From positions 32,001 through 96,000 of the forward strand of contig CAWEJX010000004.1 of NCBI GenBank assembly GCA_963809485.1: 64,000 nucleotides of DNA. Direction: 5' to 3'. The notes below the pieces were generated by a model. That model was not told the origin of the DNA. It was given only the letters and a program-made list of their open reading frames with translations, and did not search any database. This stretch comes from an uncultured Acidobacteriota bacterium (lineage in GTDB: Bacteria > Acidobacteriota > UBA6911). The position numbers and the translations under genes are program-made. Each line of letters begins with the position of its first letter. Position 1 is the stretch's first letter. This document shows positions 19,332 through 51,769 of this stretch, piece by piece.

Positions 19332-19447
19332 GAAAGGGTGTTTCGGCAGGGATGGGAAACCCGGATGGAAAATGATGCACGGGGCGCGGAAACCGGAACT
19401 CTTTCCCTCCGGTCTCCGCGTCTCCGCGTGAAATGGGTTTTTGGGGC

Positions 19448-21057
19448 TTAAAGCGCCGCGGCAAGGTCGCTGGGAATGCGGCTTTCTCTCTTCCCTTCCT
19501 TGAGCAGCTCTTTCAGCTGCCCCCATTTTGGCAGGAACAAAGCGCTATCCATAGTTTTCAGGTTTGGGGAGATACGCGGCTTGAAATCCATCATTCCCAG
19601 AATATTTTTTTCCAGATCGACGCCGGGGGCAATTTCGGTCAGGACCAGTTCGCCGTTTTCCAGTCTGAAAACGCCGCGCTCGGTAACAAAAAGCACCGGA
19701 TAGTTCCTGGAGCTGGCAAAGGCGCCGCTGAACGTAATCTGCGCGACCTTTTCCACGAACTTTTTCCCCGTACCTTCTTTGGCAATGCGCAGTCTGCCGT
19801 TCTCCACCACTTCTGAGGATCCGGTCGTAAACATCCCGCAGAAAACAACCTTCTTGGAATTTTGAGTGATGTTGATGAAGCCGCCCGGGCCGGCCACCTT
19901 GTTGCCAAACCGGCTGACGTTTACATCGCCATGTTGATCCACTTGAGCCAGTCCTACAAAAGTGGCGTCCAGGCCGCCGCCGTCATAATAGTCGAACATG
20001 GAGGCATGCTCGATCATAGCCTCCGCGTTCAGAGCGCCGCCGAAATCAAGCCCATACGACGGGACGCCGCCGAATACGCCCAACTCGGTGGTAATGGTGA
20101 TCCTGTGGCTCATCCCTTCCTCTGCTACCGTACTGGCGATAACCGCAGGAATGCCTACTCCCAGGTTGATCACATTGCCGGGCGTAAGTTCCAATGCCGC
20201 ACGGCGGCCGATGATCTTGCGGGCATCCAGCGGGAGATCGGGGGAATTTTGTTCAGGGGCACTTTGATGTGGCCAGCCAGCGCCGGATTGAAGTAAGTCT
20301 GCTGGGTCTGATGATGGTTTTCCGGCTTGGCAATCACGACATAGTCAATCAAAGTCCCGGGAACTTTGACATTTTTAGGATGAAGTGTATTGGCCATGGC
20401 CAGATTATGGGCTTGAGCGATGACGATGCCGCCGCTGTTTTTGGCGGCCATCGCCAGCGGCAGTGCTTCCATGATGACCGATTCGTTGTCCATCTTCAGG
20501 TTGCCGTTCTCATCGGCGAGTAGTTCCGCGAATCAGAGCGACATTGATGGGAAACGGCTTATAAAGCAAGCATTCCTGACCTTCGACTTCGATGACTTTC
20601 ACCAGATCTTCATTTGGTAATGGAGGTGATCTTGCCGCCGTCGATTCGGGGATCGACAAAGGTGCCCATTCCCACATTAGTGATAACGCCGGATTTTTTT
20701 CCCGCAATGGCTCGCCATAGCTGGCAGATCACACCCTGGGGCAGCAGATAGCACTCGATTTTGTCCTTTTCGATCAGGTTGATCATGTTGGACGGAGGTC
20801 AGATGTGTGTCCGCAGATCAGCCTTTTGGTCAGGCCTTCGTGGCCCAGGTGGGTGGTGCCCTCTTTTCTTATAGTCGCCGCAGGTACAGCTGTGGACCAG
20901 GGTGATATCTTTCGGGTGGCCCGATTCCATGAATCTGTCCTCGATGGCAATGGCAATTTCCTCGGCCCAACCGGCCAATCCCTGCGTGCTGGCGCCTATC
21001 GGTCACGCCGTCCTTAATCAACATGGCCGCCTGTTGAGCAGTAATTATTTTTGACAT
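19448..21057 (-). CDS. Acyl-CoA:acetate/propionate CoA-transferase (YdiF/Pct family), multiply frameshifted
   Basis: Fragments [72 protein letters not shown]. Confidence 0.85.
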
Positions 21058-21373
21058 ATCGTCACGTCTCCCATCCGCTTGAGGTCCTGCCTGGGCCTCG
21101 CGGAATAATAAACCATTCGGCCGCTATCATGTCAGTTGTGATTCAATTCCGTCGGGCAAGCAGGGCGGAATAAACCAGAAAAGCAGCTTATTGAAGCATA
21201 GAAAAATGTATTAAGGCAGCTCCATCTTCAGGATAATTTAACCCTTAAGCTAAACATATTTCTGCATTTAATGTCAAGTTTGCCGGACAGATTTCAGGAA
21301 GCCATCGAGGGCAGACAGATACCCGGGGAACAATCTCGGCAGTTGCATGATTCGGGGAGCAAGACAGGTATGA

Positions 21374-21612
21374 GTCAGGCACCTCCGGCAACGCCGGAGG
21401 CTTGAAAGATTGGAACCGCTCAAAGCGGTTGGAAGAGTTATGCTGGTCTTGAACGCTGACTTACGCGGGCAAAAGCCGATGAAGCGCTTCATCGGCTTTT
21501 GCTCGCCGACCCTCGCCGAACAAATCGGTTTGTCAGCGTACCTCAGCGTTTCAAAATACGGAGCTGTCAAACTCTATGAGTCCCCCGGCAGAGCTGTGGG
21601 TTTACCAATAGA
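21374..21612 (-). mobile_element. Non-autonomous IS200/IS605-like element (both hairpin ends, palindromic cargo)
   Basis: Subterminal hairpins CCTCCGGC-AAC-GCCGGAGG and CCCCCGGCAGAGCTGTGG. On the minus strand it starts after TAAT and ends in TGAC. No transposase inside. Confidence 0.7.
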
Positions 21613-21725
21613 ATTATTAACAGTTGCTGCCAGTACAGGCGTATACACACCACCTGCTACCCTGACCCTGGCGGGCGGTCCGTTTCTCGCGTAGCTGTAA
21701 ATAAAGCAGGATGCCTGGACCTTTT

Positions 21726-22357
21726 TTAAACCACGTCCTCTTCTTCACTCGAATCCTTAGAATTCGACATATAATCGAGCTCCAGATCATCCTGTTGAGT
21801 CATCGTCGTCAATACCGCCGAATACCCGTCCCCCGACGCGCTCACGGATGGGACCTTTCTTGCAACCCATTTCACCGCCCTTGGCTCCGATAATTGGTTT
21901 TCCGCTTCCGGGCAGGCTTCGCATCCGGGCCGAAATTGCGGTTGCGCCTTTCCGCGCGTGCCGTCCGGCCATTTTCCATCGGGTTTGGTGCAAAATCAGG
22001 GCTGCCGAAAGAAGGTCTGGGCTGTAAATAGGGACGCGACGAACTCCCGATGCCGGCGGGTCGCATGGAAAATCCGGGTCTCGATCCAGATCCGGAATCG
22101 GGCCGGCTTTCCCGTGCGCGGGCTTCGTTGATTGTTATGTTGCGTCCTTTGAACGGCTGGTTGTTTAATCGGCGGCTCGCTTCCTCGGCTTGAGCCGGGT
22201 CGCTGAACTCGACAAAAGCAAATCCTCTTCGCTTCCCCGTTTCACGATCCACGGGAATAATCACATTCGAGAGTGGTCCAACGGATGAGAAAAATTCCCT
22301 CAAATCCGTTTCAGTCGTCTCGTAGGGCAGGTTCCCCACAAACAAACGTACAGACAT
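21726..22357 (-). CDS. RRM RNA-binding protein with low-complexity tail (frameshifted near the 3' end)
   Basis: RNP2 LFVGNL, RNP1 RGFAFVEF, INEARARE. Tail continues in other frames to an acidic C-terminus. Confidence 0.85.
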
Positions 22358-22675
22358 TGCTCTCCCTTTTAAAACCCCGAGAATACGCACACAGCGCACG
22401 TACTCTCACCAATAGTTGGTTAAATTTTCATGCGTATTGTTTTGGGGTCATGTTGTTAATTGGCGCTGTAATCCTTTACTCAACCTAGCAGCTTATCGGA
22501 AGTTCCTTTGAGATACTTAACAGCTGCATATGTAATATTTTACACCAAAATGACATTTAAAAAGCAGTCTAAATTCTTTAAATTCGGGGCATCATTTTAA
22601 GCCATTCAGTCTCGTGCCGGGAAAGCCGCTGCAAAGCCACTATGGCTCGGGACGGCAATATCTGCAGCCCTCGTG

Positions 22676-24055
22676 CTATTCCTCCGCAGAGTCGAAATAA
22701 TGGTTGTAATAGATCCTCTGTGCCGGGATTCCGAATCTCTCCCGAGTGCAGTTTGTCAAAAATGGTCCGGGCCGCTCTTCGATCGTCTGCTGCGGGACAA
22801 ATCCAAGCGTCTGGTTCAGCTTGTCAAAAGAGACGCGGTAGTCACGGGCATCAAGATTGGAATTATCCCTGGTAATGGGTATGCCGCCCAGCGAGGTCCC
22901 GATGATTTCGGCGACCTCGTCGATCTGATAATTCTGGCCATCCGAGCCGACATTGAAGACCTGGTTTCCCACATCCTGCAGGTTCGCTTCAAGGCATCGG
23001 ACGTAGACTTCAGCGGCATCCTCCACTCCGAGGAGCGGGCGCCACTGCCGGCCGCCAAAGACCTGGATTTTTCCGTCCACAAACGACTTCATGCTCATCG
23101 TGTTGACGACCAGGTCAAACCGCATGCGATGGCGAGTATCCATACAGAGTTCCCATCCGCAGAATGGTCGGGCTGAAATACTCGTCCCCCATGCCGAGGA
23201 TGATCTTTTCGGACTCGATCTTGGTGCGCGCATAAAGAGAAACCGGATTCAGCGGCGCATTTTCATCGAGCAGGTCTGCGCCTATCCCATACACGCTGCA
23301 GGTGGATGCATATAAAAACCGGTTGATATGGTGCAGTTTGCTGGCGGAAGCCAGCGCCTGGGCAGCCAGCACATTGGTTTCGATCGTTTCCGTCGGTCGG
23401 ACTTTCGATGCAGGATCGCCGACTATGGCGGCCAGCAGGACGACGGCGTCCGTCTCGGAAAGCGAACTCACGCAGGTATGAATGTTGCGCAAATCCCCTT
23501 CGATGATTTCGAGGTTTTCGTCTCCGCGAAAGCGCTCCAGCGACCGGCGGCCGTAGATAAAACTGTCCAGGATTCGCACCCGGAATCCGCGGCGGAGCAG
23601 CTTTTCGCGTCAGCACACTGCCCAGATAGCCCGCTCCCCCCACAACCAGGACGCGCTTGTCCGGCCGGTCGGCGCTGGAATCAAGTTCCGAAAAGCCGTG
23701 TAGCCGGTTAAAATCATCGACTGCCAGAACTTCCACGAATGCGCCCATCTGCCGAAACGACCGGAAGGAACCGCACGCCGTTCAATTCCATGTCGACAAT
23801 CATGCTGTCGGCTTTTTTCCGGTTGCTGAGAGATTCTTCGGTGAGCTTGTAGACATGCTTCATCGGACAGCGCCGACTTCCTCTTCGCCTGCGCTCCGCT
23901 GATCAGCAGGCGGCGAAGATCCGCAATGAAATGCCTGCCCAGGTACACGCCCTTTTCGTCCAACACAAACGCGCGGTCGAACGGGCTTTGCTCGATAAGC
24001 TGTATCGCCTTTGGATCGATGTGCCTCTTTTCAGACAGACAACAGGATATTTCAT
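22676..24055 (-). CDS. NAD-dependent epimerase/dehydratase with N-terminal CBS-like region (frameshifted)
   Basis: VLVVGGAGYLGS, AAIVGDPA, ASTCSVYG, YARTK, RFDLVVN. N-terminal pieces AFVLDEKGVYLG and FLPVVSADGRIREV resemble CBS motifs. Confidence 0.8.
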
Positions 24056-24201
24056 TCCATCCACTCGATTTTAAAACCTTTTACGCGGAGACGCGGAGAG
24101 CGCGAAGTAATAAATCCCGAACTTTGCAGGCTCCTCGCCTCCGCGTGAGATTCCTTGCGCAACCCAATGGAACCTTGCAGCCCGCAACTGTTTTGTCCAT
24201 T

Positions 24202-25115
24202 TCAGGATTGATGCTTAACGAACCACTCAACATACATGCGCATGGCGTCTTCATAATCCAGCGCGGCTTCCCATCCCAGCAGGCGATAAGCCTTTTCCGA
24301 AGAGATGAACCGTCCTTTGAAATTCCCCTTCCGATCCTCGACAAAGGTCAGCTAGGCTTTCTTCCCGAGGATTTCCTCGATTGTTTTCACATATCTGGAT
24401 TACGCTGATTCTTTTCTTGCCGTTGAGATTAAATATCTGGTTTTCCGCAGCCGGATTCAGACAGGCGGCATTGCCGCGCGCAAGATCCTTGACATAGATG
24501 AATTGCCGCGACTGGCTGCCGTCTCCATGGATGGTGATCGGTTCCCCGCGGAGGATCCGTCGGATGAAAATCGGAGTGACGGTTTCCGGGCGCGCACGTT
24601 CGCCGAAAGGAATGCCGTACCGCATGATGGTGTAGTTCACGCCGTAGAGACTCCGGTAATTTTTGCAGAACAGCTCGGCGGCAATCTTGGACGAAGTGTA
24701 GATGTGGTCCGGATTTTCGGTATAGGGCGTGTCCTCGGTAATGTTTTCTTCTCCCGCTTCGGGAAGCGATCCATAGACCCACTCGGTGGACGCCAGGATG
24801 ACACGCGCGACCGCCGTGCGGCGGGCAGCCTCCAGGACCGACAGTGCGGTACCTGCCGTTATGTCGTTGGAAAATAGGGGGCTTTCAAAAAAACGGTTCA
24901 CATTCGCTTCGGCGGCGATCAGATAGACGATGTCGCCCTTTGAAAACCTGGATCATCCGGTCGATGTCCCGCGTATCCCCCCGGACAAATCCGCATTTCT
25001 GGCCGTAATGCGGCGCCTCGAGATCGTAGATCAGTACTTCATGCCCTTGATCGAGCAATACATCCACAACATGAGATCCGATGAATCCGGATCCTCCGGC
25101 AACCACAATTTTCAT
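24202..25115 (-). CDS. NAD-dependent epimerase/dehydratase (GalE-like; frameshifted)
   Basis: MKIVVAGGSGFIGSH, ASTEWVYG, YTSSK, GDGSQSRQFIYVKDLA. Confidence 0.85.
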
Positions 25116-25446
25116 ACGGAAATACCGAAAGCTCCTCTCATACACGAACAGCCAGGGGTGTCCTGCGCTTCGGCAAAATGCAATTCCATTTCCCGGCTGC
25201 AGCATTAGCTTCGTCATTACCGGGAGGCAGGTCAAGCTATTTCGGCGATCAGCCTCTCAGCAGGGATTTGGCCGGCAGGCAGCATTTTCATGCATTCAAT
25301 GAAAATCCGGCAAAAAAAAGAGCTTGACCACGAACCACACGAATTACACTAATATCTCCTTGCGGTAAAGCTCGGGCATGGACACAAGCCCGGCACATTG
25401 CTGTCGTGCAATTCGTTACAGTCCTTGAAATCAGGAGAAACAGCCG

Positions 25447-34566: not shown

Positions 34567-34663
34567 CAGGTAATTCCTCAAGACTTCGAGGTTAACCTTT
34601 GAGCCTCCAAAACTCAAGGCCGCGTATCGCCTGGCAAGAGCATCGCCCGCGCAGCAATATCCT

Positions 34664-34849
34664 TTCCTGATCGCCGGCAAGAGTCTCGACCAGGCCGTGA
34701 GTCAGGTACCTCCGGCAAAGCCGGAGGCTTGCCAATGTAATTATGGCGCAGCTTACGGGGCCCTTGCCATGACCACTCCGGGCAACACAACCATGGCAAC
34801 AAAGGCCGAAGTCGAAAAAGCCATGCGCGGTGGAGGGGCACGGGTGTAA
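34664..34849 (+). pseudogene. 3' remnant of a PfkB-family sugar kinase (KdgK-like) interrupted by a 39-nt element
   Basis: Translates FLIAGKSLDQAV-[insert]-NYGAAYGALAMTTPGNTTMATKAEVEKAMRGGGARV*, resembling the KDG-kinase C-terminus. No 5' part present. Confidence 0.7.
34701..34739 (-). mobile_element. Minimal 39-nt IS200/IS605-like element
   Basis: GTCAGGTACCTCCGGCAAAGCCGGAGGCTTGCCAATGTA. Both termini resemble those of 21374-21612. Removing it restores GTG AAT TAT. Confidence 0.7.
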
Positions 34850-35093
34850 TGGTAAAGCGCGGCATAAGGCGGCAGCTTCGGGAATGAAGGAGGCTGAAAT
34901 ACAAAATCCGTGTAATCCTCGGGATTTTTCTTTATGCTTAAGCCCCATAAACGATTGATTAATCGCCATGAAAATTGATGGCTCGTATACGTGCAATCCC
35001 GGAGTCCATGAATCCGGCACCTATGTACGGACACGGACTGAGCACTCCCGAGCTGCACGGCTTTGGCAATTCAACAGCAAGGAGGATAGATCG

Positions 35094-36821
35094 ATGAAAT
35101 GGCATCTGTGTGCCGCTTTAATCGCGGCTCTATGTCTGAGCCTTTTTTGCAGCCTGCCGGCTCAAAACAATCAGGCTCAGGCACAAGGCAAGATGGTTGG
35201 GCAGAAAATTACCGTGCTCAGCCCAATGGGCAAACCGCCTGCGATTGAGCTGAAACCGATGGCGCCGCGGCTCAGGCTCGCTGGAAGGCAAAACGGTGTA
35301 TCTCGTCAACGACGGCTACCTGGGAACGGACCTTCTCCTTGGGGAGATGGAAGCCTGGTTCAAGGCCAATATGCCGAAAGTCAACATCGTTTACCGATCT
35401 GAAGGGCGGCGGAGGTTTTACTGCCGAAGATCCCAAATTGTGGGCAGAAATCAAGGAAAAGGCCGACGCGGTCGTCATGGGGATGGGGCATTGAAGTCTC
35501 TGTGTGTCGGCGGTCGTCGCACACTGCATCAATATTGAATCAAAACTTGGCGTACCCACGGTTCCCCTGATCACTTCGCGAATTTTACACCCAGGTTAAA
35601 ACCCATCACACCATCCAAAAAGGCATGCCCAATCTCCGGGTCACCTATCTCATATCGCCGGTTTGGGGCAAAACCGCCGAGCGCCTGCGCAAGGAAATCG
35701 TGATGAAGAGCCCGGTAAGCGGAAAGATGATCATGCAGGAGATCGTCGAGGGACTTACGCAGGCCCTTGAGCGCCGAAGAGAAGAAAACGGGCACCATCG
35801 AGCAGTCCGCGGGCCCGCGAGGCTTTCACCGATACCCCGGATAAACTTCAGCAGATGTTTATGGAAAAGAGGATGACCGACTACATGCCGATCATCCTGC
35901 CGACGGAAGAGAAAGGTCGCCGAAATGCTGAAAGGGACCAGCCACCGTCCCGACGAAGTGGTCGGCAAGATGGCGGCGCACACGGCAATGGGCGGCGCCG
36001 ACAATGTCGAGGTTTTTGAGCACTGGTCCTACACGGTGAAGACGGTGGCCATCAACGCGGTCATGGCCGGGTGCAAGACCCGAATACATGCCCGCTGCTG
36101 CTTGCCGTGGCATCCACAGGCAAAGAGGCCATTTCGGTGTCGGACAACTCCTTTACCGAAGGTCTGATCATCAACGGGCCCATCCGCGATGAAATAAAAC
36201 TCAATTACGGCTTGGGCGCTATGGGGCCGTTCAGCCAGGCGAATTCCACGATCGGCAGAGCATGGAACCTGCTGTCCATCAATGCCGGGAATTGCGGGAG
36301 AGTCGGCACAACCTACATGGGAACTGTCGGAAATCCCATGAACTGGAACAACGTCATTATTGCGGAGAACGAGAAAGATTCTCCCTGGCAACCCTACCAC
36401 GTTCGAAAAGGCTTTAAACCGTCCGACAGCGTCGTGACCTTGTGCGAAGGATGGGGAGTCCTGTCGGCCAAAAATTCAAAATACAGCGTATGGCAGAAGG
36501 AGATGGACTTCCCGGGCATCGTCAAGAAGATCGTCAACGACCAGGACGGACTTTTCGGAGCTCTGGTGGTCCTCAATCCTACGGTTGCGAATTACATCAA
36601 GGAAGCGGGCTACGATACGGTGGAGAAGTTTACGCAATATCTGTTGGCACCCGCAGAAGGGCAGGCAACCCCAGAAGCCGGCTCGCCAAACCGGCGCAAA
36701 GGGCCGGGCTTCGGGGCGTCTGCAGGTAAACATCGTTGTGACGGGAGGATCGAACAACAATTACTGGAGCTATGGCGGAATGGCGTGCCGTCAGAGCGTC
36801 CCGATCGATAAGTGGCGTTGA
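35094..36821 (+). CDS. UGSC-family selenoprotein (Sec TGA 35492-35494, motif H-U-S-L-C), signal peptide, several apparent frameshifts
   Basis: ADAVVMGMGH-TGA-SLCVSAVVAHCINIESKLGVPTV is collinear with the paralog at 50144-51769. Downstream MLKGTS, AINAVMAG, IINGPI, ANSTIGRA, AENE, PWQPYHV. Confidence 0.75.
35502..35524 (+). promoter_or_regulatory. Bacterial SECIS-like hairpin
   Basis: GTGTG-T-CGGC[GGTC]GTCG-CACAC. G-initiated apical loop begins 18 nt after the TGA. Confidence 0.65.
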
Positions 36822-36833
36822 TCCTCATCCGGA

Positions 36834-37075
36834 GTCAAATACCTCCGGCAGAGGCGGAGGCTTGATTGTTTATCGCTTAAAGCGGCTGGATAAGCTGCAC
36901 TGCCTCTAACCGCCGACATACGCGGATAAAACGCCGGCCCTTGCTTTATAGATCGGCGTTCGTCGGCGTTTTATCCGCGTATGTCGGCGTTCAAGGATCC
37001 TGGAACTGTCGAACTCTTCGGCAAGGCAGCCACGAACCCGCGAGGCGTTCCTGTTCGCGCGATTCGTGGCTGCTT
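36834..37075. repeat. Stacked repeats: IS200-like end, AACCGCCGA/TCGGCGTT palindrome, GCAGCCACGAA/TTCGTGGCTGC palindrome
   Basis: Inverted repeats at about 36842-36862, 36909-36992 and 37026-37073, between convergent genes. Confidence 0.7.
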
Positions 37076-37096
37076 TTCTTTTTGCGGGATTTTGTC

Positions 37097-37501
37097 CTAC
37101 AGCAAGGGCAGGCTCTTCGGCGGTCCGGCAAATGAGTACACTTTCGCATCCGCCTCGGTGAAGTAAAACGTCACAAAGGTTTCATCGTCGGCGCCCTTGG
37201 GATAGATCTGGAGAAGCATGGCCGCCTCTGAAAAAGCCTGAACCTTGGCCTCGCGGCTGTCGTCCACAGCAACCTTGCCCCGGATGCGGAGCCAGGATTG
37301 ATCCGCGCCCATTGCTGAAATTTCGATATCCGGATTTTTCACCAGTTGCTGGAAAACATCCTTCGTTTTGTTCGTGCACATGTAAAGCGCGTTGTTCCTT
37401 TTCATGACAAATCCGAAAGGACGGACTCTGGCTTTGTTGCCATCGACGGTGGCAAGGTGAAAGACTTGATTGGCTTTTAGATATTCCAACGCAGTATTCA
37501 T
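37097..37501 (-). CDS. Pyridoxamine 5'-phosphate oxidase-like (NimC-like) FMN-binding protein
   Basis: FHLATVDGNKARVRPFG, TNKTKDVFQQL, WLRIRGK. Confidence 0.88.
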   Translation of the reverse strand: MNTALEYLKANQVFHLATVDGNKARVRPFGFVMKRNNALYMCTNKTKDVFQQLVKNPDIEISAMGADQSWLRIRGKVAVDDSREAKVQAFSEAAMLLQIYPKGADDETFVTFYFTEADAKVYSFAGPPKSLPLL

Positions 37502-50143: not shown

Positions 50144-51769
50144 ATGAATGTACTGATACGCTGTCTGCCTGTTTTTGCTTTGATGGTGAACCTGTTCCCC
50201 GCTGCAGCCGCCCAGACAACACTGGAGGTGCTGAATCCGATGGGGTCGATTGAGCCGCCCAAAACCTACGGGCTCTCCCCTCGGGTTGCGGATCTGGCCG
50301 GCAAAAGGATCGCCCTCATGCACAATAACAAACCCGGCGCTTCCAATCTTCTCGATGCCCTGGAAACGCTGTTGAAGGCGAAGTACCCCGGCGCAAGCTT
50401 TTCGCGCGGATTTCAGACGCAGCCGGTAAAGCCGCCAAAGGATCCGGACATGTACAAAAAGGCGGCGGCGGCAAGCGACGTCTTCATTTTTGCCATGGGA
50501 GACTGAGGAACCTGCACGTGGTGGGGTTCCCACCACACGGTGCAGATGGAAAAGCTGGGCGTTCCCGGAGTGCTGCTCGCCAGCTCGCAGTTCCTTACGG
50601 ATGCAAGATCAGCCGCTGCAGACTGGGCGATGCCCGGCATACGCATCGTCGCTATCCCATCGGACAAATGGTACCGGTTTCGCGGAACGGTGAATGAAGT
50701 GCGGCCGCTCGCGGAGGCAGCCCTGGACCCGATCATCAAAGCTCTCACCACTCCCTTGACCGCGCAGGAGGCAAAGCCGCCCCAGCAAACGAAGGTAGAG
50801 CTTCCTCCGATCAAAATAACCGGAGCAGGCTATGCCGACTCCGTTGAGAAAATGAATGCGCTTTTCCTCAAAAACCATATGAGCGACGGGCTGCCCATTG
50901 TGCCTCCGACCCGGGAGGCCGTTGACGCAATGCTCAAAGGCACCTCGCGTTCCCGCGACGAGGTCATCGGCAAGGTCCCCATGAAGTTCGGCATTGCCAC
51001 GGTTGAGAAGATCGCGATCAATGCCGTGATGGCAGGCGCCAAACCGGAATATTTTCCCGTAATCCTTACGGCGATGGAGGCATTCTGCTCCGGTGAGTTC
51101 TGGCACATGATGGGATCCTCCGGCAGTTTTACGCTCATCATCATGGTAAACGGACCTATCGCGAAAGAGATCGATATGAACTCAGGGATCGGTTTTCTGG
51201 GCGACTGCTGGCGCGCCAACAGCACGATCGGGCGCAGCGTGCGGCTTGCGACGCGCAACATCGGCCACACCTGGCCGGCGGAAAACGACATGGCCCTGGT
51301 CGGCCGTCCATCGGCTCACACCTTTTTCACATTTGCCGAAAACGAAGAAATGAATCCATGGGAGCCCTACCACGTGAGCATGGGCTTTAGGAAGGAAGAC
51401 AGCACGGTGACGATGACGAAGGTGGGATCGTATTTCGGGGCTTCAGGTCAAACGGTAGGAGGCGGCGCTGTCGCAACCTGGACCGCTCAGTCCATCCTGG
51501 ATGGGATGGCGGGACACGCAACATCCAAGGGCGGCGGCTATTACACCTGGTTCCACCCGGAAGGCGCGCAGGCGCTGGTGGATGCCGGCTTCACCAGCCG
51601 CAGCAAAATACAGGAGTGGTTTTCCAGCAAAACCGGAGTCTTGCCCAGGAATATATCGGTCGCCGTCACCGGCGGCGTGCCGGGGTACTCGATGATATGG
51701 GGTTACGAACTGGATTCCCATGTGACCAAGAAGATTCAGGGCGCCACTTTAACCAAAGCCGGCCGCTAA
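50144..51769 (+). CDS. UGSC-family selenoprotein (Sec121, TGA 50504-50506, motif D-U-G-T-C), signal peptide, 541 aa
   Basis: ORFs 50111-50506 and 50540-51769 are in the same frame and separated by one TGA: FAMGD-U-GTCTWWGSHHTVQMEKLGVP. C-terminal SDGLPIVPPT, KIAINAVMAGAKPEY, ANSTIGR, FAENEE. Confidence 0.9.
50512..50545 (+). promoter_or_regulatory. Bacterial SECIS-like hairpin
   Basis: CTGCAC-GTGGTGG[GGTTC]CCACCAC-ACG-GTGCAG. Apical loop begins 19 nt after the TGA. Confidence 0.8.

Follow-up and report, generated by a model that had tools for sequence, protein, structure and literature searches.

A probably functional gene for a putatively exported long-form UGSC selenoprotein behind apparent frameshifts in an uncultured Acidobacteriota bacterium

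Introduction

Does a gene that is crossed by an in-frame TGA codon and broken by repeated shifts of reading frame still encode a working selenoprotein? This question is raised by a locus at positions 35094-36821 of a 64,000-nucleotide stretch of DNA (the window) from an uncultured Acidobacteriota bacterium (GenBank assembly GCA_963809485.1, contig CAWEJX010000004.1, positions 32,001 to 96,000 of the forward strand). A previous description made without database searches (the sequence-only reading) had seen in this locus, hereafter the target, a divergent paralog of an exported selenoprotein encoded at 50144, with selenocysteine (U) in a U-x-x-C motif. The analysis presented here supports that the target is probably functional and encodes a two-domain long-form UGSC selenoprotein predicted to be exported, its frame-breaking insertions being most likely errors of assembly. 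The locus illustrates how a real selenoprotein gene can escape annotation twice over: the UGA codon is taken for the end of the gene by gene callers, and what remains is shredded by patchy insertion errors in a highly contiguous metagenome assembly. While a single gene of this kind is ordinary, the expansion of its family throughout a genus and the association with a partner domain without solved relative are the interesting part.

A member of the UGSC selenoprotein family

The target is a member of the known and published UGSC selenoprotein family, and not of a new family, because it combines a match to PF24696 ('UGSC') with the hallmark blocks of the published Unknown_1 domain. The frameshifted target itself was matched only piecewise, with a family hidden Markov model (HMM) built from paralogs of the source genome, and the Pfam score was taken on the intact ortholog from the same-genus genome G006, whose protein is 94% identical to that of the target with the insertions dropped. 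On this ortholog, PF24696 scores 87.7 bits (cut-off 25) over residues 41-200, spanning the selenocysteine U133, and on the 50144 paralog it reaches 105.5 bits with the same cut-off. For the C-terminal domain, the family HMM matches positions 215-571 across three reading frames, in agreement with the earlier statement that this domain is common to the target and the 50144 protein. A search of the ESM Atlas returned UGSC clusters only, and no Pfam or NCBIfam match was obtained for the target open reading frame (ORF) fragments 36071-36811 or 35296-35538. One score argues against a straightforward assignment, as the cut-off of the equivalog NF041046 (125 bits) is reached neither by the ortholog (54.7 bits) nor by the 50144 paralog (90 bits); the long exported forms are inside the Pfam family and outside this short-form equivalog.

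UGSC-containing proteins have been described as a selenoprotein family without known function, abundant in aquatic metagenomes (PMC2398784), and count as some of the most abundant selenoproteins in the environment (PMC2398784, PMC13188914). Their fusion to Unknown_1 was described by Zhang and Gladyshev in 2008 (PMC2398784). Figure S1A of that article prints the Unknown_1 block as AINAVMAGCKPEYMPVLIAA...VNGPIRDRIG, and its sequence table contains a Global Ocean Sampling (GOS) read in which VGDUGSC is fused to LPIVPPTEE...AINAVMAG...INGPIRDQI. The counterpart in the target is AINAVMAGC(R)PEYMP(V)LLAV...INGPIRDEI, the blocks of its C-terminal domain being AINAVMAGCxPEYMP, INGPIRDEI, ANSTIGR and AENExxSPW. 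A reading as an undescribed family is contradicted both by the identity of the N-terminal domain with PF24696 and by the presence, in the fusion partner, of the block printed in Figure S1A for 'Unknown_1' (PMC2398784).

After discounting the 12 inserted bases, the gene has a length of about 570 codons and ends with a TGA stop codon (36819-36821). According to a hydropathy heuristic, on which all export predictions given here are based, its N-terminus MKWHLCAALIAALCLSLFCSLPAQNNQAQAQG combines a charged start with a hydrophobic core and an A-x-A site, and signal-peptide-like N-termini are also predicted for the closest paralogs. The signal peptide reported for the target is retained as a prediction. 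In an AlphaFold2 (AF2) model of the ortholog, this region appears as a helix (residues 2-19) followed by residues 20-33 with a predicted local distance difference test score (pLDDT) below 50.

The predicted selenocysteine codon and its hairpin

The codons GGG ATG GGG CAT TGA AGT CTC TGT of the target read as G-M-G-H-U-S-L-C. In an alignment of 52 paralogs, the TGA shares its column with the TGA of the 50144 protein (A-M-G-D-U-G-T-C), which is the equivalence that the sequence-only reading had claimed. Similarly, the U-S-L-C variant which it had pointed out is real and is part of a G-H-U-S-x-C subgroup with roughly fifteen copies in the genome, whose hairpins mostly have a GGUC loop. The G-M-G-H-U-S-L-C motif, TGA included, is kept in all five same-genus orthologs (G006, G001, G005, G022 and G023) with the frame open on both sides, and protein conservation is continuous across the TGA in all orthologs and in 40 paralogs. 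The machinery required for selenocysteine is encoded in the genome, with a tRNA-SeC(tca) at C19:20948-21046 and both selA and selB scoring above their cut-offs (564.7 and 391.3 bits, respectively).

Downstream of the TGA lies a hairpin resembling a selenocysteine insertion sequence (SECIS), GUGUG-U-CGGC[GGUC]GUCG-CACAC, the first loop G of which (35512) is found 18 nt after the A of the TGA. The hairpin of its own with a loop at +18 that had been proposed for the target is thereby recovered, and it is placed as in the paralogs. It is the minimum free energy (MFE) fold of the region (-14.1 kcal/mol), its loop and closing pairs are invariant in the orthologs, and 85% of its cells are paired in six orthologs vs 22-59% when the 3' partners are slid. 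Among paralogs, the 52 nt following the motif codon have a mean MFE of -15.9 kcal/mol in the 40 copies with TGA vs -10.7 kcal/mol in the 12 non-selenocysteine copies. Other results weigh on the opposite side. Taken alone, its hairpin is within chance (z = -1.31, 24 of 200 shuffles folding as well), covariation is uninformative in the six orthologs (one compensatory pair, a score equaled by 301 of 500 shuffles), and RNAalifold applied to the same orthologs chose a different, weak consensus structure without any compensatory pair. The hairpin of the 50144 paralog folds at -23.3 kcal/mol (z = -2.97), and no Rfam family was found at E <= 1 over 34600-37200. The proposal of a second selenocysteine paralog keeping its putative recoding hairpin is supported, and the ribosome would be expected to read the UGA as selenocysteine via SelB bound to this putative element.

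Alternatively, the TGA could be a true stop, in which case the locus would encode an exported peptide of 132 residues and, further downstream, a second protein, as public annotations have it. Public gene calls do begin after the TGA, and the best database matches are 430-450 aa long, covering 76% of the query. However, besides the uninterrupted conservation across the TGA in orthologs and paralogs, the UGSC Pfam domain spans this codon, both the hairpin and the selenocysteine machinery are present, and the literature already describes this family as one of selenoproteins (PMC2398784). Termination at this codon is accordingly considered highly improbable. All close public homologs are annotated as 'hypothetical proteins' of 380-450 aa whose start is placed past the TGA, and databases therefore systematically fail to show this subgroup as selenoproteins.

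Origin of the frameshifts

That the gene contains several frameshifts, as previously noted, was verified at base resolution: relative to the intact G006 ortholog (89% DNA identity), the target has 12 single-base insertions and no deletion. At HMM resolution, nine frame transitions are seen, all of them +1 and in the order f0>f1>f2>f0. Three of the 12 insertions are located next to the same base, adjoining a homopolymer, and nine are not. Once the insertions are dropped, the comparison of 571 codons with G006 gives a synonymous rate (dS) of 0.384, a nonsynonymous rate (dN) of 0.032 and a dN/dS of 0.083, with no internal stop, and the differences are distributed as 24/17/117 over the three codon positions, which shows a protein kept under strong purifying selection on either side of the UGA. 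Further comparison was made with Logan contigs from four other metagenomes (X1, X5, X7 and X10), aligned to the target at >= 85% likeness. Each of the 12 bases is left out wherever a listed contig covers it, the best piece being about 94% identical and the longest one (1515 nt, 77 differing letters) spanning 35000-36234.

The source is a 21-contig metagenome assembly of long-read-like contiguity, and the same kind of damage occurs in genes unrelated to the target. In total, 86 frameshifting indels, of which 60 are insertions, are present in the 19.5 kb that share synteny with G006:C84; they are clustered, with few events at 25.8-34.7 kb and 37.0-40.2 kb. A CoA-transferase-like gene located 14 kb upstream has seven insertions and no deletion in a codon alignment (dN/dS 0.07), while BLAST gave 11 insertions and no deletion for the CoA-transferase-like region. 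Within 19400-25400, four unrelated genes are broken by 1-2 nt indels compared to their intact G006 orthologs, with dN/dS values of 0.07-0.21. They encode a CoA-transferase-like protein (552 aa), an RNA-binding protein with an RNA recognition motif (RRM; 207 aa) and two NAD-dependent epimerase-like proteins (516 and 344 aa), and the interval resembles a patch in which errors of assembly were left uncorrected. A scan for ORF-poor patches, which is a crude measure, found 46 of them (2.1% of the genome), including 20501-24250 and not the target. Because changes that are insertion-only and not of the slippage type hit, in patches, strongly constrained and unrelated genes, assembly error is favored over decay. 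The frameshifts of the target are most likely assembly artefacts, that is, uncorrected long-read consensus errors occurring in patches, and not part of the DNA of the organism.

If the frameshifts were real, the target would be a recently inactivated pseudogene in a large and fast-turning-over paralog family. Such a family could bear the loss of one copy, and among the 59 paralog ORFs of the genome, 52 are frame-intact and seven fragmentary, several matches being split into pieces, so some real decay in the family is possible. In addition, the insertion-free contigs come from relatives and not from the source strain, and no sequencing run of the source sample was found with which to check the bases, the best run holding 0.10 of the sampled words. 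These points count against a functional gene. In contrast, twelve neutral indels should be accompanied by many unconstrained substitutions, and the observed dN/dS of 0.083 comes without a nonsense codon; all of the changes are insertions (12 to 0), most of them not adjoining a homopolymer; the same pattern breaks four unrelated and ordinarily essential-looking genes nearby; and the SECIS region is 100% identical between the target and G006. Recent inactivation is thus judged unlikely, and the view of the frameshifts as the sign of a decayed pseudogene did not hold up against the insertion-only pattern, the strong constraint and the relatives lacking the inserted bases.

It could also be imagined that decoding copes with the shifts and restores the full protein, either by programmed +1 frameshifting or by reading of quadruplets, as all nine transitions are +1 and the conceptual product is perfectly conserved. 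Yet the sites GGC[T]CAG, CCG[A]TCT, TCG[C]GAA, CGC[A]GGC, CCG[C]GAG, GAA[A]GG, GCA[A]GA and CCG[C]TGC have no motif in common, insertions occur at each of the three codon positions, the extra bases are absent in five orthologs and four metagenomes, and the same insertions are found in unrelated genes, there alongside deletions. As the sites share neither motif nor codon phase and relatives are without the insertions, programmed +1 decoding, which was given almost no credence, is excluded for practical purposes. Errors of assembly in a functional gene are retained as the probable explanation.

Expansion of the family in the genome and the genus

The sequence-only reading had inferred an expanded extracytoplasmic family from two paralogs, and the expansion goes well beyond two copies. 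A six-frame search of the source genome gave 71 matches. With TGA read through, 59 ORFs match the 50144 protein, and 52 of these are both full-length and frame-intact. Of these 52 intact paralogs, 40 carry TGA in the motif column; the remaining 12 show S, A, G, T, L or M there, and Cys occurs in no copy. Signal-peptide-like N-termini were predicted for 41 of the 52 and a twin-arginine motif (RRxF) for two, consistent with a family mostly destined for export, as had been proposed. The highest identity between paralogs is 72% among the pairs listed, and for this reason the paralogs are not co-assembled strain variants.

Several variants were noted within the family. The 12 intact non-selenocysteine paralogs (e.g., C4:120898, C12:105721 and C9:8423) look redox-dead rather than like Cys homologs. 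The two twin-arginine paralogs, L005 (C4:293827 region) and C12:202393, have N-termini such as ...VPRRAFLRDAG... in place of a Sec-type signal peptide, which points to export of some copies in the folded state. Three tandem paralogs at C4:340995-347539 contain G-Q-S-W-U-G-A-A-T, i.e., selenocysteine without the +3 cysteine, and the U-x-x-C pair is therefore not shared by every family member.

Beyond the source genome, where PF24696 has 55 matches, all 24 same-genus genomes examined contain 8-45 matches each. Outside the genus, two of 16 further genomes from the class have a single match, and no match was found in the other 14 or in any of 14 control genomes. As given in PMC13188914, the largest bacterial selenoproteomes are those of the Olavius delta-1 symbiont, with 57 genes, and of a Methylomirabilota metagenome-assembled genome, for which 63 are predicted, and no published description of a UGSC expansion was found in the literature on UGSC selenoproteins, Methylomirabilota selenoproteins and Acidobacteri selenoproteomes. 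We tentatively propose that this genus may hold the largest single-family selenoprotein expansion yet, with no fewer than 41 selenocysteine-encoding long-form UGSC genes in one 6-Mb genome, diverged to 72% identity or less, mostly exported and all lacking a Cys counterpart. Together with ordinary selenoproteins, this number could exceed the published record of 57-63, and the copies might represent substrate-diversified periplasmic selenoenzymes whose catalytic-domain fold is not among solved structures.

Structure and proposed chemistry

The AF2 model of the G006 ortholog, computed from a 25-row alignment, has a pLDDT of 78.9 and a predicted template modeling score (pTM) of 0.78. The selenocysteine is placed directly after a strand (125-131), at the start of a helix (135-151), and the N-terminal domain (model residues 62-228) aligns with generic three-layer alpha/beta, flavodoxin/CheY-like folds with VIA-align Z values of 8-11. 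Folded alone from a 54-row alignment, the C-terminal domain reaches a pLDDT of 89.0 and a pTM of 0.90. No Foldseek match in the PDB was obtained at E <= 0.001 with the full model or with this domain, for which the best VIA-align Z was 3.4, none of 48,161 chains having Z >= 5. Such a value is unusually low for a domain model of this confidence. Class I fumarate hydratase and barbiturase, which appeared in weak Foldseek rows with TM-scores of about 0.2, were rejected as relatives, and IMP dehydrogenase, the sole PDB sequence-profile match (E = 0.03 over the motif region), was treated as a chance hit.

No Pfam family was detected on the C-terminal domain at E <= 10, the ortholog giving UGSC only. 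A phmmer search with this domain against 1.84 billion representatives retrieved 3156 cluster representatives at E <= 0.001, among which the domain is found both as a stand-alone protein (about 350 aa) and within larger ones (about 710 aa). Pfam searches on 16 domain-bearing representatives, among them forms of 709-741 aa, gave UGSC or nothing. In proteins of approximately 710-740 aa (P0149, P0157, P0170, P0185, P0224 and P0272), the domain is located at residues 20-200 or 380-570, with no Pfam family in the remainder.

In the 25-row full-length alignment, the invariant columns include D261, P264, P268, T269, N319, E328, Y329, N381, R386 and E422, and W429 is nearly invariant (90% or more). The 54-row alignment of the C-terminal domain has seven fully invariant columns, including the equivalents of P268 and E422, and the domain is devoid of conserved Cys. 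A plausible scheme is that, following export by its predicted Sec-type signal peptide, the U-S-L-C pair would cycle between selenol/thiol and selenenylsulfide forms and, in doing so, would bring about the reduction or cleavage of a substrate bound to the C-terminal domain. The reaction would take place outside the cytoplasm, and paralogs may differ in their substrates. A genus with dozens of predicted-exported copies, no Cys forms and a confidently modeled partner domain lacking a solved relative is a good place to find this substrate and this chemistry.

Feature map and genomic context

Table 1. Features of the target locus and of the reference paralog within the window.
Feature	Position	Strand	Basis
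Shine-Dalgarno-like AAGGAGG	35079..35085	+	8 nt 5' of the ATG at 35094; identical in the G006 ortholog
Long-form UGSC (UGSC/Unknown_1 fusion) selenoprotein gene	35094..36821	+	Family HMM matches in three frames; colinear with intact orthologs G006, G001, G005, G022, G023
Predicted Sec-type signal peptide, 31 codons, end AQA|QG	35094..35186	+	Hydropathy heuristic only
UGSC domain, flavodoxin/CheY-like alpha/beta fold	35214..35696	+	PF24696 on ortholog residues 41-200; VIA-align
Inserted base 1 (T), not in homopolymer	35272	+	Absent in G006 and in X5 contig
Inserted base 2 (A)	35397	+	Absent in G006; left out in X1, X5, X7
In-frame TGA, predicted selenocysteine codon at the start of U-S-L-C (35492-35503)	35492..35494	+	Sequence; orthologs; selenocysteine machinery
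SECIS-like hairpin: 5-bp stem, bulged U, 4-bp stem, GGUC loop	35502..35524	+	MFE fold; paired cells in six orthologs
Inserted base 3 (C)	35579	+	Absent in G006; left out in X5, X7
Inserted base 4 (A)	35761	+	Absent in G006; left out in X1, X5, X7
C-terminal 'Unknown_1' domain, ~330 residues	35815..36818	+	Alignments, AF2 model, motif match to Fig. S1A of PMC2398784
Inserted base 5 (C)	35818	+	Absent in G006; left out in X5, X7
Inserted base 6 (one A of AAA)	35912..35914	+	Absent in G006; left out in X5, X7, X10
Inserted base 7 (one A of AA)	36075..36076	+	Absent in G006; left out in X1, X5, X7
Inserted base 8 (C)	36095	+	Absent in G006; left out in X1, X5, X7
Four single-base insertions (~36677, 36684/5, 36696/7, 36712/3) and one 3-nt indel, variable Pro/Lys-rich linker	36677..36713	+	Four insertions each left out in X1, X5, X10
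Terminator-like hairpin and T-rich tail, 21 nt after stop	36842..36860	+	Consensus scan, pattern match only
Intact reference paralog, 541 aa, U121 at 50504-50506, hairpin 50512-50545	50144..51769	+	Sequence, PF24696

The target stands alone between an M23 peptidase gene upstream and a PNPOx-like gene downstream, both on the other strand, and the gene order around it is the same in G006. No thioredoxin-reductase-like partner is adjacent. A link with TonB receptors, which had been suggested as worth examining, finds no support in this neighborhood, as none is adjacent to the gene and its neighbors are the divergently oriented M23 peptidase and PNPOx-like genes.

Downstream of the gene, about 160 nt (36838-36997) are absent from the ortholog locus in G006. 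This stretch holds a perfect 26-nt inverted repeat (36911-36936 / 36964-36989), has copies of 78-84% identity elsewhere in the genome (C12:294538-294730, C1:547947-548140 and C1:286565-286759) and resembles hairpin-ended mobile repeats.

Comparison with known systems

In bacterial SECIS elements of the E. coli fdhF type, a hairpin located a short fixed distance after the UGA presents an apical GGUC-type loop and contains a bulged U. The hairpin of the target is similar in that its GGUC loop presents G and U and its stem has a bulged U. It differs by its short stem and unrelated sequence, the binding of SelB being putative.

With regard to chemistry, the B components of glycine, betaine and proline reductases (GrdB/PrdB) also possess a U-x-x-C motif, in which the selenocysteine would attack the bound substrate and the nearby Cys would resolve the adduct. 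The parallel with the target is a functional analogy only, with no sequence or fold relation detected (UGSC alone in Pfam at E <= 10; no PDB profile match under E = 0.03), and GrdB/PrdB are cytoplasmic, unlike the target with its predicted export signal.

The closest comparison is with the UGSC family itself. Like its described members, the target has an N-terminal alpha/beta domain with selenocysteine in U-x-x-C, and like the UGSC/Unknown_1 fusion, it carries A-I-N-A-V-M-A-G-x-x-P-E-Y...N-G-P in its partner domain. The strong preference for selenocysteine over cysteine is also common to both, with 255 selenocysteine vs 21 cysteine forms among the GOS homologs in Table 2 of PMC2398784 and 40 vs none among the 52 intact paralogs here. 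In contrast with the described UGSC proteins, the motif of the target is U-S-L-C after G-H instead of U-G-S-C after G-D, the protein has a predicted export signal, and the family is present in this genus as dozens of diverged copies.

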